Program-made: the position numbers and the translations under genes | Notes under the pieces: generated by a model | What the model was told of the DNA's origin: nothing | The model's input: the letters and a program-made list of their open reading frames with translations, nothing else | Databases searched by the model: none | From: a virus | Lineage: Duplodnaviria > Heunggongvirae > Uroviricota > Caudoviricetes | IMG/VR virus record: IMGVR_UViG_2869976549_000001 | Strand: one strand, 5' to 3' | DNA: 39,073 bases | Part shown: positions 2,083 through 8,394 of the stretch, in pieces | Layout of the letters: the number at the start of each line of letters is the position of its first letter | Position numbering within the stretch: position 1 is the first letter of the stretch

Positions 2083-2238
2083 TTACTTCCTGGATTCGTA
2101 GTCTACGAAGACAGCGACCTCCGTCTGGCCGGTTCGGATTCGTACCTCACAGAGGTCTTTCCTCGTTACCAGTGCCGTCACTATGACGGTTAAACAGATG
2201 ACGATCAGGGCGATTAACATCGCCTTTTGCTGCTTCAT
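2083..2238 (-). CDS. hok: Hok/Gef-family membrane toxin (type I toxin; HokD/RelF-like)
   Basis: 51-aa product MKQQKAMLIALIVICLTVIVTALVTRKDLCEVRIRTGQTEVAVFVDYESRK: single TM helix plus the conserved LCE(V/I)RI...EVAAF-type Hok core. The listed ORF (2083..2295) is a 5' extension, possibly the overlapping mok-like frame. Confidence 0.75.
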   Translation of the reverse strand: MKQQKAMLIALIVICLTVIVTALVTRKDLCEVRIRTGQTEVAVFVDYESRK

Positions 2239-2465
2239 AGCCTGCTTCTCCTTGCCTTTCGGCATGTAAGAGGCTAACCTACATGTGCAAAGCATGAAAT
2301 TGGCCTCAGATTAATGTTAAGCGTCTTGCCGGACGCGTAATGTTAACTGGGGCTTTTCTCTATCTGCCTTTTGGTGTTCATGCCTGAAGCAGATAGCCTC
2401 AAGCACCCGCAGTCATTCTACTTACCTCGCCAATATGAAATCAATCAGAAAGGTGCCCCATAAAA

Positions 2466-4150: not shown

Positions 4151-4897
4151 CTACTTAACAACCCTCGAATGGCTAACATTCGGACGCCAGCTCTCCCAGT
4201 TAAAATTCACCCAGCGCCCGCCGTTCATGACCATGCGATCCATCACCCGCTCGCCGAGCAATGTTTTCATCACCTCATAGTTCAGGTTTGTCAGCATCCC
4301 CACGCTGCGCATCGACGCTGTCCGGCGATCAACAATCTGGTGCAGCACCACCTGCTCGTTTTTCGTCTCGCGCTGAATGCCAATTTCATCAAGAACCAGC
4401 AGATCCACTTCGCACAGCTCCCGCAAAAATTTTTCGCCTGACTGCCCGTCGTCATAGCTGGCGTGCAGGGCGCTCATAACATCAGCCACGGTAACCACAA
4501 TCACTGTCTGACCGTCTTTCAGCAGGCGATTCCCGATAGCTGCCGCTAAGTGATTCTTCCCGGTACCAGGTTTTCCGCTGAACGCAAAATTTGTACACCC
4601 GGTCATCAGTTCATCGGCGATGGATTTCGCCTGGCTTAACGCGTATCGCTGGCCGTCGTTCTGCACCTGGTAATTCGCAAACGAGCATTTACGGTGCAAC
4701 GGCTGGATGCCTGAGCGATTCAGAATTTTTTCCACCCGCAACTGGCGATTCAGGCGGTTGATCTCCTCGCTACGTTTCTGGCCTTCAGCAAGTTGCCACT
4801 CGCGCCACTCCGCTACCGTTCTGAATGGGGCGGTTACATGTGGCGGGGTCAGTCGGCGGATGCGTTCCAGAACGCCGCCTGTCGCAATATTTTTCAT
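4151..4897 (-). CDS. ydaV: DnaC-like replication ATPase / helicase loader (YdaV-like)
   Basis: 248 aa; Walker A GKPGTGKNHLAAAIG and Walker B DLLVLDEIG, IstB/DnaC family; sits 6 bp after the initiator stop. Confidence 0.8.
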   Translation of the reverse strand: MKNIATGGVLERIRRLTPPHVTAPFRTVAEWREWQLAEGQKRSEEINRLNRQLRVEKILNRSGIQPLHRKCSFANYQVQNDGQRYALSQAKSIADELMTGCTNFAFSGKPGTGKNHLAAAIGNRLLKDGQTVIVVTVADVMSALHASYDDGQSGEKFLRELCEVDLLVLDEIGIQRETKNEQVVLHQIVDRRTASMRSVGMLTNLNYEVMKTLLGERVMDRMVMNGGRWVNFNWESWRPNVSHSRVVK

Positions 4898-5251
4898 GGT
4901 CCGTTACCCCCTGAAGCCTGGCGGGATCGCACTGTCCGGCAACGAGACGGTGTTAACCTGTCGGAGCAACGTCTCAGGCCGAACACCTTTCGGCGCGAAC
5001 AGGCCCTGGTATTCATTGGCGATGCTGTGTCGAATCACCTGCTCAGGTGTAAAACCCTGCTGACGGAATTTTTCCAGTTCCCGTATCGCCCCGTTAGCGC
5101 CCTGCTCCGTTCGAATCGGTTTTCGCAATGCCTGTCTGAACCGGACCCACTCATGCCAGAGTGTTTCCGGCAACCAATCGGGCAGCTCAATAGCCTCCGG
5201 CTCGAATTTTTTAGACGCTCGTTTTTGGCGAGGGGGAGATCAGTATTTAGA

Positions 5252-5302
5252 TCTTCCTCTTCCTCTTCCTCTTCCTCTTCCTCTTCCTCTTCCTCTTCCT
5301 CT
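5252..5302. repeat. Hexanucleotide tandem repeat (TCTTCC) x8.5; encodes a poly-Glu linker on the minus strand
   Basis: Perfect tandem copies 5252-5299 plus partial copy; in frame (GAG GAA)n on the minus strand inside the initiator gene. Confidence 0.9.
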
Positions 5303-5326
5303 GGTAACGCTTTTTGATCCGTTTGT

Positions 5327-5345
5327 GTAACGCTGGCAGCGTTAC
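5327..5345. promoter_or_regulatory. Palindrome GTAACGC-N5-GCGTTAC, copy 1 of 3 (candidate origin/operator site)
   Basis: GTAACGCTGGCAGCGTTAC next to the poly-Glu repeat; an extra GTAACGC half-site at 5304-5310. Confidence 0.4.
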
Positions 5346-5535
5346 CTTTTCGTTTCAGTTCGCGTATTTTTGTTACTCGCTCGTTTGTAACCGCCCGTTT
5401 TTTTTAGAGCTTTTTCCGTTATGACGTTCAAAGTTAGGTAGAGAAAGCCCTCCGTCATTTTCGACCAGCCATCCAACCTGAATTAACGCATCAGCAAAAC
5501 CAGACATAAAAGTGATGCGATCTATTGCACTTTTT

Positions 5536-5554
5536 GTAACGCCGCGAGCGTTAC
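5536..5554. promoter_or_regulatory. Palindrome GTAACGC-N5-GCGTTAC, copy 2 of 3
   Basis: GTAACGCCGCGAGCGTTAC inside the 5' part of the initiator gene. Confidence 0.4.
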
Positions 5555-5581
5555 AATCTGCATTACCGTCTGGATTTGCCC

Positions 5582-6487
5582 CTATATTTCCAGACATCTG
5601 TTATCACTTAACCCATTACAAGCCCGCTGCCGCAGATATTCCCGTGGCGAGCGATAACCCAGCGCACTATGCGGATGCCATTCGTTATAATGCTCGAACG
5701 CCTCTGCAAGGTTCTTTGCTGCCGTTAACCCGTCTGGTTTGGGCATGATACTGATGTAGTCACGCTTTATCGTTTTCACGAAGCTCTCTGCTATTCCGTT
5801 ACTCTCCGGACTCCGCACCGCCGTGTTCTTCGGTTCAAGTCCCAACATCCGGGCGAACTGGCGTGTTTCATTAGCCCGGTAGCATGAACCATTATCCGTC
5901 AGCCACTCCACTGGAGACGACGGAAGATCGTTGCCGAAGCGGCGTTCCACCGCTCCCAGCATGACGTCCTGTACTGTTTCACTGTTGAAGCCGCCGGTAG
6001 TCACCGCCCAGTGCAGTGCCTCACGATCACAGCAGTCCAGCGCGAACGTGACACGCAGTCTCTCTCCGTTATCACAGCAGAACTCGAACCCGTCAGAGCA
6101 CCATCGCTGATTGCTTTCTTTCACGGCCACTCTGCCTGTATGTGCCCGTTTCGATGGCGGTACAGCAGGTTTTCGCTCAAGCAACAGCGCATTCTGGCGC
6201 ATGATCCGGTAAACACGTTTGGCATTGATCGCAGGCATACCATCAAGTTCTGCCTGTCTGCGAAGCAGCGCCCATACCCGACGATAACCATACGTGGGCA
6301 GCTCTCCGATAACATGGTGTATACGGAGAAGCACATCCGTATCATCAGTGTGACGACTGCGGCGGCCATCCATCCAGTCATCGGTTCGTCTGAGAATGAC
6401 GTGCAACTGCGCACGCGACCCCCGGAGACAACGGCTGACTAAGCTTACTCCCCATCCCCGGGCAATAAGGGCGCGTGCGCTATCCAC
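5582..6487 (-). CDS. insD: IS2 transposase InsD (OrfB)
   Basis: 301-aa ORF, DDE integrase-core motifs; identical to the copy at 14057..14962. Confidence 0.9.
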
Positions 6488-6810
6488 TTTTTTGCCCGTC
6501 CATATTCAACGGCTTCTTTGAGGAGTTCATTTTCCATCGTTTTCTTGCCGAGCAGGCGCTGGAGTTCTTTAATCTGCTTCATGGCGGCAGCAAGTTCAGA
6601 GGCAGGAACAACCTGTTCTCCGGCGGCGACAGCAGTAAGACTTCCTTCCTGGTATTGCTTACGCCAGAGAAATAACTGGCTGGCTGCTACACCATGTTGC
6701 CGGGCAACGAGGGAGACCGTCATCCCCGGTTCAAAGCTCTGCTGAACAATTGCGATCTTTTCCTGTGTGGTACGCCGTCTGCGTTTCTCCGGCCCTAAGA
6801 CATCAATCAT
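6445..6810 (-). CDS. insC: IS2 InsC (OrfA, HTH)
   Basis: 121-aa product from Met [13 protein letters not shown]...; the listed ORF has a 15-aa 5' extension. Confidence 0.85.
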
Positions 6811-6901
6811 CTGTACTCCAATGACTAGTCTAAAAACTAGTATTAAGACTATCACTTATTTAAGTGATACTGGTTGTCTGGAGATTCAGGGGGCCAGTCT
6901 A

Positions 6902-6946
6902 CCGTCTATCATTTGTTGATCCGCCCATGCCCAGAAGCGAATAACC
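6902..6946 (-). pseudogene. 45-bp internal fragment of the replication initiator gene, stranded between IS2 and IS600
   Basis: After excising both IS elements and one copy of each duplication, the fragment reads in frame (...VIRFWAWADQQMID...) between the 8211-8317 and 5373-5570 segments. Confidence 0.55.
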
Positions 6947-7010
6947 TGAGGTAGCCTGAGTTTAACGGACACTCCTTCCTGAAATAGAATGGCATCAGAA
7001 GGAGCTAATA

Positions 7011-7313
7011 ATGAGCAGAAAAACCCAACGTTACTCTAAAGAGTTCAAAGCCGAAGCTGTCAGAACGGTTCCTGAAAATCAACTTTCGATCAGTGAAGGC
7101 GCTTCCCGATTATCTCTTCCTGAAGGCACTTTAGGACAATGGGTTACCGCCGCCAGAAAAGGGCTCGGTACTCCTGGTTCCCGCACGGTGGCTGAACTGG
7201 AATCTGAAATTCTGCAACTGCGTAAGGCGTTAAATGAAGCTCGCCTTGAGCGAGATATATTAAAAAAAGCAACAGCGTATTTTGCACAGGAGTCGCTGAA
7301 AAATACGCGTTAA
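7011..7313 (+). CDS. IS600 transposase OrfA
   Basis: Identical to 1..303. Confidence 0.9.
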   Translation: MSRKTQRYSKEFKAEAVRTVPENQLSISEGASRLSLPEGTLGQWVTAARKGLGTPGSRTVAELESEILQLRKALNEARLERDILKKATAYFAQESLKNTR

Positions 7314-7348
7314 TCGAACAATGGCGACAACAATTTCCCATTGAAGCG

Positions 7349-8167
7349 ATGTGTCAGGTATTTGGTGTATCCAGGAGCGGTTATTACAACTGGGTACAGC
7401 ATGAACCCTCAGACAGAAAACAAAGTGATGAGCGGCTAAAACTGGAGATTAAGGTGGCACATATCCGCACTCGCGAAACATATGGAACCCGGCGGCTCCA
7501 GACGGAGCTGGCAGAGAATGGCATCATCGTTGGTCGTGACCGACTGGCACGTCTTCGTAAGGAGCTAAGGCTACGCTGTAAGCAGAAACGCAAGTTCAGA
7601 GCGACTACGAACTCGAACCACAATCTGCCAGTTGCGCCAAATCTGCTGAACCAGACGTTCGCTCCTACAGCACCAAATCAGGTCTGGGTGGCGGACCTGA
7701 CGTATGTTGCCACACAGGAGGGATGGTTGTACCTCGCTGGCATCAAAGATGTTTATACGTGCGAAATTGTCGGCTACGCCATGGGAGAGCGCATGACAAA
7801 AGAGCTGACAGGTAAAGCCCTGTTTATGGCGCTCAGGAGCCAGCGCCCACCTGCCGGGCTAATCCACCACTCTGATCGAGGTTCACAGTACTGCGCATAC
7901 GATTACCGGGTCATACAGGAGCAGTCTGGTCTGAAAACATCAATGTCGCGTAAAGGTAACTGTTACGACAACGCTCCGATGGAAAGCTTCTGGGGAACGC
8001 TGAAAAATGAGAGCCTGAGCCACTATCGTTTTAATAACCGGGATGAAGCCATCTCAGTAATACGGGAATACATTGAGATTTTCTACAATCGTCAGCGTCG
8101 TCACTCTCGTCTGGGGAATATCTCCCCGGCAGCCTTCAGGGAAAAATATCATCAGATGGCTGCTTAA
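7349..8167 (+). CDS. IS600 transposase OrfB
   Basis: Identical to 339..1157. Confidence 0.9.
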   Translation: MCQVFGVSRSGYYNWVQHEPSDRKQSDERLKLEIKVAHIRTRETYGTRRLQTELAENGIIVGRDRLARLRKELRLRCKQKRKFRATTNSNHNLPVAPNLLNQTFAPTAPNQVWVADLTYVATQEGWLYLAGIKDVYTCEIVGYAMGERMTKELTGKALFMALRSQRPPAGLIHHSDRGSQYCAYDYRVIQEQSGLKTSMSRKGNCYDNAPMESFWGTLKNESLSHYRFNNRDEAISVIREYIEIFYNRQRRHSRLGNISPAAFREKYHQMAA

Positions 8168-8210
8168 AAAAAGAACAAATGGTAGTGTCCGCTATTGCCA
8201 GTACACCTCA

Positions 8211-8317
8211 ACCTTCCCTAATGCGGCATCTGGATCAATATTCAGAATCTCAGCAAGCCTGAATATTTCCGGCTTATCCGGCGTAATAACCTCGAGCTTT
8301 ATCCAGTTTGAAGCCAT
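8211..8317 (-). pseudogene. N-terminal fragment of the replication initiator (YdaU-like): MASNWIKLEVITPDKPEIFRLAEILNIDPDAALGKV
   Basis: ATG at 8317..8315 preceded by RBS AAGGTG; reading frame continues across the IS600 and IS2 insertion sites once the elements are removed. Confidence 0.55.
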
Positions 8318-8330
8318 TTGTTTTCACCTT

Positions 8331-8349
8331 GTAACGCTCGCAGCGTTAC
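8331..8349. promoter_or_regulatory. Palindrome GTAACGC-N5-GCGTTAC, copy 3 of 3, directly upstream of the initiator RBS
   Basis: GTAACGCTCGCAGCGTTAC abutting the AAGGTG RBS (rc of 8325-8330) of the initiator start at 8317. Confidence 0.4.
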
Positions 8350-8394
8350 ATTTAACTGATACCGAACAAAACAATCCGGCACGATTAATTTCAA

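Follow-up and report, generated by a model that had tools for sequence, protein, structure and literature searches.

The window, as the whole 39-kb stretch of DNA analysed here is called, contains a minus-strand pseudogene for a replication initiator, with ydaT immediately upstream and ydaV immediately downstream (Table 1). The initiator gene is interrupted by two insertion sequences, one of which we take to be IS600 from its OrfA sequence, while the other is presumably IS2, judging from its end sequences. Excision of both elements restores the reading frame through the short piece of initiator sequence left between them. Two frameshifts also disrupt the gene: a run of eight T (5398-5405) has gained 2 nt, and 10 nt are missing near 5238. 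The intact initiator of related loci matches PHROG 2509 ('replication initiation protein') over its full length (residues 1-262, E 1e-89), as does a protein of phage epsilon15 (E 5e-92), and its match to PHROG 678 ('O-like') is confined to residues 93-237. A Pfam search with an intact homologue returned no match, the N-domain included. Structure prediction weakly suggests a winged helix for the N-domain (residues 1-95) and a disordered linker at residues 120-159. The family defined by this N-domain is large, comprising 4,068 clusters at 50% identity (E ≤1e-10).

Table 1. Features of the initiator locus, with positions in the window
Feature	Position	Strand	Remarks
ydaV, DnaC-like ATPase, presumed helicase loader	4151..4897	-	Immediately 3' of the initiator gene; annotated in relatives as 'ydaV: ATP-binding protein' or 'DnaC-like'
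Initiator pseudogene, remainder: rest of N-domain, conserved HNGKSSKKRA motif, linker, C-terminal domain	4904..5570	-	
Polypurine tract, AGAGGAAGAGG..., expanded to 51 nt	5252..5302	-	Proposed unwinding/loading element of the origin
Array B: P3 (5327-5345) and half-site 5304-5310	5304..5345	.	Half-site abuts the polypurine tract
Array A: P2 (5536-5554) and decayed third half-site GCATTAC (5560-5566)	5536..5566	.	
IS2, 1331 bp	5571..6901	-	Directly beside array A; target duplication CCGTC at 5566-5570 and 6902-6906
Initiator piece of 40 nt between the IS elements	6907..6946	-	Aligns to intact relatives
IS600, 1264 bp	6947..8210	+	Inverted ends, orfA and orfB, junctions; target duplication ACC at 6944-6946 and 8211-8213
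Initiator pseudogene, 5' fragment, codons 1 to ~35	8214..8317	-	Translation matches intact 262-aa homologues
P1: palindrome GTAACGCTCGCAGCGTTAC	8331..8349	.	Just 5' of the ribosome-binding site; lineage-specific extra site
ydaT, gene in the cII position, frameshifted	8395..8817	-	Immediately upstream of P1; Pfam YdaT_toxin

The window contains exactly three copies of the palindrome GTAACGC-N5-GCGTTAC (P1 to P3), where shuffled sequences yield 0.06 on average and never more than 1, and no further match appears anywhere in the window when up to two mismatches are allowed. These three 19-bp palindromes and one additional exact half-site had been listed in the initial annotation, and all four were recovered. 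All of the palindromes and the adjoining repeat lie within, or just upstream of, the initiator pseudogene, and their placement there agrees with the earlier description. P1 is located 13 nt 5' of the initiator ATG (8317), beside the ribosome-binding site AAGGTGA. P2 occupies codons 53-59, in the 5' coding part, and P3 occupies codons 122-128 in the part coding for the linker, 22 nt from the GAAGAG repeat; the additional half-site lies 1 nt from that repeat. The third half-site of array A differs from the consensus at one position and reads GCGTTAC in intact relatives. In the window's lineage array A codes for residues 48-58, a low-confidence loop of the predicted N-domain. The suggestion that the insertions had split a single set of sites also holds, as both elements lie between palindromes and their removal gives distances of 209 and 192 bp, compared with 207 and 192 bp in intact relatives.

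Approximately 370 related loci were compared, in three samples, two of which were picked by DNA motif; the third, picked by protein, was small (14 lineages). All close relatives carry the sites at -33, +159 and +366 from the ATG, which answers the earlier proposal to look for the palindrome in related prophages. Among these relatives the palindrome arms vary in 7 of 56 columns, whereas the 5-nt spacers vary in 9 of 15. Synonymous-site conservation among them (1/12 versus 30/124, p = 0.3) involved too few sites for significance alone. Beyond the close relatives, about 105 of the 120 viral contigs with an exact 21-mer match carry a homologue of the N-domain (29-100% identity) around it, irrespective of the type of YdaT, C-terminal domain or downstream partner. 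The remaining 15 or so matches have no initiator gene, a number near a rough chance estimate for 16 specified bases. The sites keep steady positions, at about +140 to +160 and +340 to +390, and they follow the N-domain down to 29% identity, rather than the repressor, YdaT or the C-terminal domain. A site of the P1 type, at -33 or -34, is found where the N-domain has 86% identity or more, and in only a few other relatives; across 64 other non-redundant loci, the 150 bp upstream of the gene contain only two sites in all. On this comparison the deeply conserved units are the two half-site arrays inside the gene, with P1 as an addition of the enterobacterial Rac-like lineage.

The two arrays change together. 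An equivalent of array A, with at least two sites in the part coding for the N-domain, is present in 58 of the 64 non-redundant loci and always shares its half-site with the linker array of the same gene. The linker array itself, followed by a purine-rich tract, was found in all 14 phage lineages picked by protein alone, and it occupies the position of array B in nearly all loci picked by the tract. Depending on the N-domain, the half-site in those 14 lineages is GTAACGC, GTCCGCA, GTAGAC, GTCAC or GGACGACC; among relatives at large, GTCCGCA, GTCACGC, GTAGAC and others replace GTAACGC, in both arrays of a gene jointly. The type of half-site also matches the sequence clusters formed by 133 distinct N-domains. 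This match could partly reflect common descent, and the agreement of the two arrays within one gene is the stronger argument. Half-site density is 40 per kb in the linker array and 9.5 per kb in the N-domain coding part, against 0.5 per kb elsewhere in the same loci, so the concern that the palindrome might be a generic repeat was not borne out.

The repeat beside array B is (TCTTCC)8 at 5252-5299, which reads (GAAGAG)8 in the sense direction. It belongs to a homopyrimidine tract of 51 nt, the only homopurine/homopyrimidine run of at least 30 nt in the window. Its length varies among close relatives (15, 21, 27 or 51 nt), variation that the initial annotation had proposed looking for. Across the family the tract is fused to the last half-site and has a period of 5 in most members, and of 5 or 6 overall. 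Of the 135 loci containing the exact tract, 125 encode the N-domain on the strand of the tract and have the tract between +358 and +453; in species-representative genomes, 92 of 120 tract matches have this arrangement of N-domain, strand and position. A purine run of at least 15 nt is present in 190 of 214 linkers, compared with 28 of 1175 random windows. Averaged over loci, the 40 bp that begin with the tract are 13-28 points lower in G+C than the locus mean. In the window's lineage the tract itself is 50% G+C, and no obvious easily melted region is seen there. While half-sites differ between relatives, CCAGAG(AAGAG)n is kept.

The initial annotation had described this repeat as a poly-Glu linker. 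The repeat is real, but poly-Glu is not what is conserved. Across loci the tract is translated in all three frames (149, 79 and 12), and the last half-site and tract together encode LPEEEE, TREEKRRE or YQRREEK according to frame. Therefore it is the DNA, and not a poly-Glu linker, that is under selection, and the conserved feature is best described, from sequence comparison, as a polypurine DNA tract. The layout as a whole, in which short initiator-specific repeats are joined to an almost invariant purine-only tract, recurs across many bacterial phyla, in the initiator genes of their phages.

The closest known counterpart of this anatomy is the origin of lambda, in which iterons and an AT-rich tract in the middle of O form the established origin structure (PMC7466680). 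The six-iteron origins of Stx phages are, like that of lambda, placed inside the initiator gene, in the part coding for the link between N-domain and C-domain. The lambda iterons, at +348 to +432 of O, are followed by ACAAAAGAAAAAAGAAAAGA, and a purine-rich, AT-rich tract lies 3' of them in the sense direction (about +455 to +475), the whole reaching from +348 to +476. In the family, array B and the tract together extend from about +330 to +440, after the predicted N-domain and in the predicted disordered linker; array B spans about +330 to +395 and the tract begins at about +390, so that distances from the ATG are nearly the same as in lambda. Both systems have repeated sites with dyad symmetry and a helicase-loader gene after the initiator gene. 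Differences are also evident. The family profile has no detectable homology to lambda O (hhalign probability 0.3%, E 0.17), and the loader is DnaC-like rather than P. Lambda has four adjacent 18-bp iterons. The sites of the family are more dispersed: they are 7-nt half-sites at intervals of about 11-13 bp, grouped into two arrays some 200 bp from each other, with P1 in addition. The lambda tract is simply AT-rich DNA, in contrast to a GA repeat nearly invariant across phyla.

Two further groups of replicons invite comparison. The 'replisome organizer' genes of Gram-positive phages have internal origins, as in SPP1, where oriL lies in gene 38, and in lactococcal P335-type phages. These initiators have an N-terminal DNA-binding domain that binds repeats within its own gene, and no conserved GA tract is known to have been described for them. 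Iteron plasmids of the R6K, P1 and pPS10 type likewise combine short repeats beside an unwinding element with a winged-helix initiator whose specificity co-evolves with the repeats; unlike the family arrays, their iterons are not part of the rep gene. The rep promoters of these plasmids have inverted repeats that serve as operators, to which the P1 palindrome of the window is possibly analogous.

The repeats are probably the cognate sites of the initiator N-domain and, with the adjoining polypurine tract, would form a phage origin inside the initiator gene, as ori-lambda does in O. The lambda-like reading proposed initially, with the origin in the linker-coding part of the gene, gains strong support from the comparison: sites are conserved in place, track the N-domain and are replaced jointly with it. 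The open-access literature searched gave no account of such an initiator-gene origin with a purine tract, nor a mapped origin for any phage of this initiator family.

The Rac prophage of Escherichia coli K-12 is relevant here, as it has been reported to have an active origin, oriJ (PMC3945230). The window resembles it in the gene order of racR-type repressor, cro-like gene, ydaT, initiator and ydaV, and the K-12 YdaT and YdaV are nearly identical to those of the window's lineage. The C-terminal domain of K-12 YdaU is 82% identical over 114 aligned columns of the family profile, and 85% identical by tblastn to the intact E. coli protein. However, the K-12 N-domain is DUF1376 (Pfam E 2.7e-26), which the window-type N-domain is not, and only the C-terminal domains align when the family is compared with K-12 YdaU by hhalign. 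The K-12 Rac initiator gene contains neither GTAACGC palindromes nor a GA tract; its linker-coding part has ATGTTCAAACA three times, followed by an A-rich stretch. The earlier identification of the initiator as ydaU is thus correct for the C-terminal domain and for the ydaT-initiator-ydaV order, and fails for the N-domain and the palindromes. By this comparison the window's allele would represent a specificity type different from that of K-12 Rac.

The best surviving alternative, although improbable, is that the sites are purely autoregulatory operators through which the initiator or another phage regulator controls the replication genes, with the origin elsewhere. P1 does lie directly upstream of the initiator ribosome-binding site, in the 77-bp spacer between ydaT and the initiator, and a palindrome spacing of about 200 bp could allow repression by DNA looping. 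Yet a consensus scan found no promoter-like site near P1 and no sigma-70-like match in this spacer of an intact relative. P1 is missing from most of the family while the in-gene sites are kept; these sites do not track the repressor, cro-like or YdaT genes, and an operator model gives no role to the purine tract that is constantly fused to the last half-site. One related locus (L004) has racR and ydaS of the K-12 type and nevertheless carries the palindromes, whereas K-12, with a 96% identical YdaT, has none. Operators for immunity or YdaT regulators were rejected, the palindromes co-occurring with different repressor and cro alleles. The operator reading offered in the initial annotation as an alternative therefore does not fit the in-gene arrays, although P1 alone may be autoregulatory.

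Slightly less probable still is a role for the arrays and tract as another kind of cis site, for recombination, packaging, host-factor priming or as an mRNA element, in place of an initiator-dependent origin. CCAGAG(AAGAG)n is nearly invariant across phyla and accompanies three or more unrelated N-domain families, DUF1376 among them, which does suggest a reader other than the variable N-domain. The tract is nevertheless always fused to half-sites that vary with the N-domain, always in the initiator gene and always with its purine strand as the sense strand; a conserved second element beside iterons is moreover what an origin requires, as the AT-rich tract of lambda illustrates. The region matches no RNA family in Rfam. 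A scan for intrinsic terminators flagged P3 and a hairpin upstream, both on the antisense strand alone, and shuffled sequences were flagged at least as often.

The invariance of the tract also admits a broader reading, on which we would stop somewhat short of even odds: CCAGAG(AAGAG)n or (GAAGAG)n may be a common 'core origin' module to which several unrelated phage initiator families (that of the window, DUF1376 and others) have joined interchangeable DNA-binding domains, each with its own short repeats, in hosts from Proteobacteria to Planctomycetota, Verrucomicrobiota and Firmicutes. If so, its near-invariance would mean recognition by something universal. Four candidates can be named: a stable R-loop that the initiator mRNA itself forms, a structure prone to triplex formation, some conserved basic stretch of the initiator protein, and a replication protein of the host. 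On this reading the charged or poly-Glu linkers would simply follow from selection acting on the DNA.

It is very improbable that the repeats are coding by-products of selection for a repeated peptide motif (NAxxVT) and for a linker of charged or poly-Glu type. P2 and P3 do share one frame in the E. coli lineage (CNARGVT and GNAASVT), and the repeat encodes 8-16 Glu residues. P1 is non-coding, however, spacers vary where arms do not, and nucleotides are kept between phages at about 30% protein identity whose hosts differ in G+C; the use of all three frames by the last half-site and tract, with the period of 5 in most members, ruled out a coding artefact. The prospect that the sites are due to chance or to a generic REP-like repeat, for which nothing but the small motif size speaks, is negligible and is regarded as refuted by their excess over shuffled sequence, all in one gene region, and by the low half-site background outside the array.

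For binding, unwinding and helicase loading, lambda provides the model for how an origin of this kind may work. Early rightward transcription through the cro-like gene, ydaT, the initiator and ydaV would supply the initiator and the DnaC-like loader. Initiator subunits would bind half-sites about one helical turn apart (11-13 bp), filling the two arrays about 200 bp apart in the N-domain and linker-coding parts, to which the Rac-like lineage would add the palindrome at the ribosome-binding site. The nucleoprotein complex would then open the duplex at the tract, which consists of purines only, is locally AT-rich and is fused to the final half-site. Transcription across this tract may aid opening by forming a stable hybrid of purine RNA and pyrimidine DNA. 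Finally, the C-terminal domain would recruit the loader and the host helicase.

In the window itself, the palindromes and repeat most likely represent the origin, no longer active, from which a decayed Rac-like prophage once replicated, embedded in its own initiator gene as in lambda. This origin is a relic: IS600 and IS2 as well as two frameshifts disrupt the initiator gene, a half-site has decayed, and firing would require a related prophage to provide an initiator of matching specificity. In a dead prophage of an IS-ridden genome, probably that of a Shigella, it has small practical meaning of its own. For the family, if the origin reading is true, origins could be read directly from the sequences of its temperate phages and prophages, a very large group that is as yet uncharacterised, and the type of half-site would predict replication specificity and incompatibility groups. 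The natural pairs of N-domain and half-site would provide a ready system for studying how winged-helix initiators change specificity, and the near-invariant purine tract would pose a testable question about how such origins open. The locus would also be a clean example of coding sequence that has a cis-acting DNA element overprinted on it, and this would explain the odd, low-complexity linker of the protein.

The repeats in and beside the initiator gene, together with a purine-only tract in its linker, probably constitute a phage replication origin, as far as comparison of sequences can tell. A pattern scan of the window placed three GTAACGC-N5-GCGTTAC palindromes (P1, P2 and P3) where the initial annotation had them. 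No further copy was found in the window with two mismatches allowed, and dinucleotide-preserving shuffles gave a mean of 0.06 matches and a maximum of one. The fourth exact half-site (the 7-nt palindrome arm) and the hexanucleotide repeat were also present as annotated. The repeat, (GAAGAG)8 on the sense strand, is the sole homopurine/homopyrimidine run of at least 30 nt in the 39-kb window. In the restored initiator gene, P1 ends 13 nt 5' of the ATG, P2 covers codons 53-59 and P3 codons 122-128, with spacings of 192 and 209 bp. P2 and a third half-site form array A in the N-domain coding part, and P3 and the fourth half-site form array B in the linker.

Features of the initiator region in the window
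Feature	Position	Strand	Remark
cI-like repressor	9104-9511	plus	
cro-like gene	8800-9027	minus	
ydaT, frameshifted	8395-8817	minus	ORFs 8395-8700 and 8640-8816, in different frames, jointly span the 140-aa gene of intact relatives
Palindrome P1	8331-8349		
Initiator gene start	8317	minus	
1264-bp IS	6947-8210		in initiator gene; target duplication ACC
1331-bp IS	5571-6901		in initiator gene; target duplication CCGTC
Half-site, one mismatch	5560-5566		array A; GTAATGC on sense strand
Palindrome P2	5536-5554		
Frameshift 1	5398-5405		+2 nt in T8 run
Palindrome P3	5327-5345		
Fourth exact half-site	5304-5310		array B
Hexamer repeat	5252-5302	plus	51-nt homopyrimidine run
Frameshift 2	near 5238		10-nt deletion
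ydaV, dnaC-like	4151-4897	minus	

The two insertions, which we take to be IS600 (1264 bp) and IS2 (1331 bp), do split the site set as annotated, P1 being parted from the rest by both. Excision of both elements and of one copy of each target duplication gave a continuous initiator gene, in which two frameshifts remain relative to intact relatives. The initiator product cannot be made from the window. Array B is undamaged, as is the tract, here lengthened to 51 nt. One half-site is lost from array A, and IS2 is inserted immediately beside that array. The putative origin in the window is a relic. A second IS600-like copy is present (9947-10662 and 10597-11436). A single residue separates its orfA (9947-10249) from that of the first copy, and its orfB is truncated after about 100 residues by a further minus-strand element of the IS3 family. 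The IS density of the window is high, as in Shigella, and Shigella flexneri is the database label of several partial initiator proteins that are nearly identical. A sok antitoxin RNA match (2233-2408, minus strand; Rfam RF01794, 117 bits) indicates a hok/sok-type module at the edge of the prophage remnant. Rfam also matched naRNA4, a REP-derived nucleoid-associated RNA, at 30676-30746 on the plus strand (63.2 against a threshold of 59.5 bits).

At least 80% of the restored region was found at 90-98% identity in 679 complete E. coli genomes and four phage records. The palindromes are kept at -33/-34, +159 and +366 in every intact close copy examined. Among 38 distinct close sequences, 7 of 56 half-site columns were variable, against 9 of 15 columns in the 5-nt spacers. 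The purine tract varies in length among them (15, 21, 27 or 51 nt); the window has the longest form in common with the copy of E. coli 2013C-4974, likewise a pseudogene. Intact relatives carry an 8-bp-stem hairpin, TACCGAAC-N6-GTTCGGTA, between the ydaT stop and P1 (2357-2378 in the intact relative L002), which in the window (8362-8383) has decayed to TGCCGGAT-N6-GTTCGGTA.

The product of intact relatives is a 262-aa protein named 'phage replication initiator YdaU family protein' by NCBI, and PHROG 2509 ('replication initiation protein') covers it from end to end (E 1e-89). It has only the C-terminal domain in common with K-12 YdaU, whose N-terminal domain is DUF1376; a Pfam search of the N-terminal domain of the intact initiator gave no match. 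An AlphaFold model (mean pLDDT 66.5) predicts four helices and a beta hairpin in residues 16-91, a basic helix at 104-121, a disordered linker at 120-159 and a small helical C-domain. Clustering at 50% identity divides the N-domain family into 4,068 groups (E no higher than 1e-10). Three Klebsiella/Enterobacter homologues (P0088, P0100 and P0109) have an 11-residue insertion in the array A loop (alignment A1, columns 52-70) containing additional N-A-x-S-V-T-like segments, and these appear to have gained extra half-sites through lengthening of a tolerant loop.

The sites go with this N-domain. In K-12 Rac, YdaT is 96% identical and the C-terminal domain is the same, the N-domain is different and the palindromes are absent; in E. 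coli PK8276, K-12-type racR and ydaS are joined with a window-type N-domain and the palindromes are present. These combinations rule out that the sites follow the immunity genes or YdaT. Scanning the 21-mer TGTAACGC-N5-GCGTTACA against 2.9 million viral contigs returned at least 120 loci. About 105 of the 120 listed had an N-domain homologue (29-100% identity) around or adjoining the match, regardless of YdaT, C-domain or downstream gene, and the number without one was near a rough estimate of chance matches. Over this identity range the site positions, counted from the ATG, remain near +140 to +160 and +340 to +390; apart from a few others, only the enterobacterial Rac-like group has a site 5' of the gene.

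Other samples were drawn without use of the palindrome. Among 50,697 phage records searched by protein, 61 matched, and from these 14 distinct lineages (26-67% identity) were taken, including epsilon15, TL-2011b, CP2, phiPSA1, Raharianne and a Vibrio phage. In all 14, the linker carries a half-site array and, after it, a purine-rich stretch in which at least 25 of 30 nt are purines; 10 have a pure purine run of at least 15 nt, and 12 carry another array where the N-domain is encoded. The downstream partner varies (DnaC-like, P-like, DnaB or none), and the half-site varies with the N-domain: the closer lineages use GTAACGC; epsilon15, BUCT711, phiPSA1, RPZH6 and Carin1 use GTCCGCA/TGCGGAC; Raharianne has TGTAGAC, the Vibrio phage GTCAC and nd4 GGACGACC. 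In 64 non-redundant loci chosen by their tract, the half-site was defined from the linker array and then counted elsewhere. The linker array was densest with 40/kb, followed by the N-domain coding part with 9.5/kb; the flanks had 0.2/kb (upstream) and 0.4/kb (downstream), and the rest of the locus 0.5/kb. Such a distribution contradicts a generic repeat. The second array held at least two copies in 58 of the 64, with neighbouring half-sites 11-13 bp apart. That the encoded N-domain reads the sites is best supported by the agreement of the two separate arrays of a gene, whatever the half-site. The repeats are thus very probably the initiator's cognate sites, a claim that we hold more firmly than the origin itself.

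Across 133 distinct N-domains, half-site type tracks sequence clusters, some neighbouring types being one base apart (e.g. GTAACGC and GTCACGC). Within single clusters, GTAACGC is used in some loci and GTCACGC in others (L147 versus L120 and L076 in cluster 14; L243 versus L179 and L182 in cluster 15; further loci L205, L213 and L247), and some arrays mix the two. Such loci are, by their sequences, apparently natural intermediates of a one-base change of specificity.

The purine tract belongs to the same element. In 21 diverse genes, up to three direct half-sites (or none) precede the palindrome in the linker-coding part; another inverted half-site comes next, and then the tract, which starts directly after the last half-site as CAGAG or CTAGAG and continues as (AAGAG)n, (GAAGAG)n or similar. 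Its period is mostly 5, but 6 in the E. coli lineage. Each of the three reading frames is used for CCAGAG and its purines (by 149, 79 and 12 non-redundant genes), so that the peptide is TREEKRRE, LPEEEE or YQRREEK. Therefore, the conserved object is the DNA, and not a poly-Glu linker as initially annotated. Codons of purines only encode just Lys, Arg, Glu or Gly, so the tract necessarily gives a charged linker.

Scans with the tract alone (CCAGAGAAGAGAAGAGAAGAG) returned at least 120 loci each from viral contigs and species-representative genomes. Among the matches listed, the N-domain was on the same strand in 125 of 135 tract-bearing viral loci, the tract lying between +358 and +453 (median +388), and in 92 of 120 loci from the representative genomes. 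By record title, the latter came from Gamma-, Beta- and Alphaproteobacteria, Planctomycetota, Verrucomicrobiota (among them an Akkermansia MAG), Flavobacteriales, a Saccharibacteria MAG and an Oscillospiraceae MAG. Also among the matches listed, three to five half-sites of at least 10 kinds occupied the 60-80 bp 5' of the tract, the last always ending in ...AC fused to CAGAG. The listed matches further included tracts in linkers of initiator-like genes with other N-domains: DUF1376 (L265 and L238; Pfam E 3.5e-11 and 9.4e-14), a 'KNWxxFQHFKDRxPPWIKL' domain without a Pfam model (L196, L245, L258 and L318, with the different repeats GATATCA and GCTAGC directly 5' of the tract) and other families (L317, L234 and L211). 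Because of this, the tract looks like a module common to several initiator families.

The origin of lambdoid phages consists of iterons and an AT-rich tract in the middle of O, and two iterons plus the AT-rich tract are enough for unwinding (PMC7466680). In lambda, four iterons at +348 to +432 of O are followed by ACAAAAGAAAAAAGAAAAGA. The proposal of a lambda-like origin within the initiator gene is supported, with corrections: element order and strand asymmetry are the same and the position in the gene is nearly so, although no similarity of the initiator to lambda O was detected. Averaged over loci, G+C in the 40 bp from the tract start is 13-28 points under the locus mean. The linker of the DUF1376-type ydaU of K-12 contains ATGTTCAAACA three times, two direct and one inverted (L005 2925-2992, minus strand), then an A-rich, purine-rich stretch; this is a candidate for the oriJ sequence, with the same plan and a different site. 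We found no description of half-site arrays with a tract in phage initiator genes in the searchable literature, which omits much older phage work, and within that literature the arrangement appears not to have been described before.

The alternative that the palindromes are an autoregulatory operator set does not suit the copies inside the gene. It is still reasonable for P1, a lineage-specific, non-coding copy directly beside the ribosome-binding site. A consensus scan found no promoter there, and P1 might just as well serve the origin complex as a third anchor point. At the putative origin, initiator subunits would bind the phased half-sites of arrays A and B, plus P1 in the window's lineage, and the nucleoprotein complex would open the adjoining purine tract, while the C-terminal domain would recruit a DnaC-like loader and the host helicase. 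As the purines always lie on the sense strand, RNA transcribed across the initiator gene would be purine-rich and may form a stable hybrid with the template. Such a hybrid could be the counterpart of lambda's transcriptional activation.
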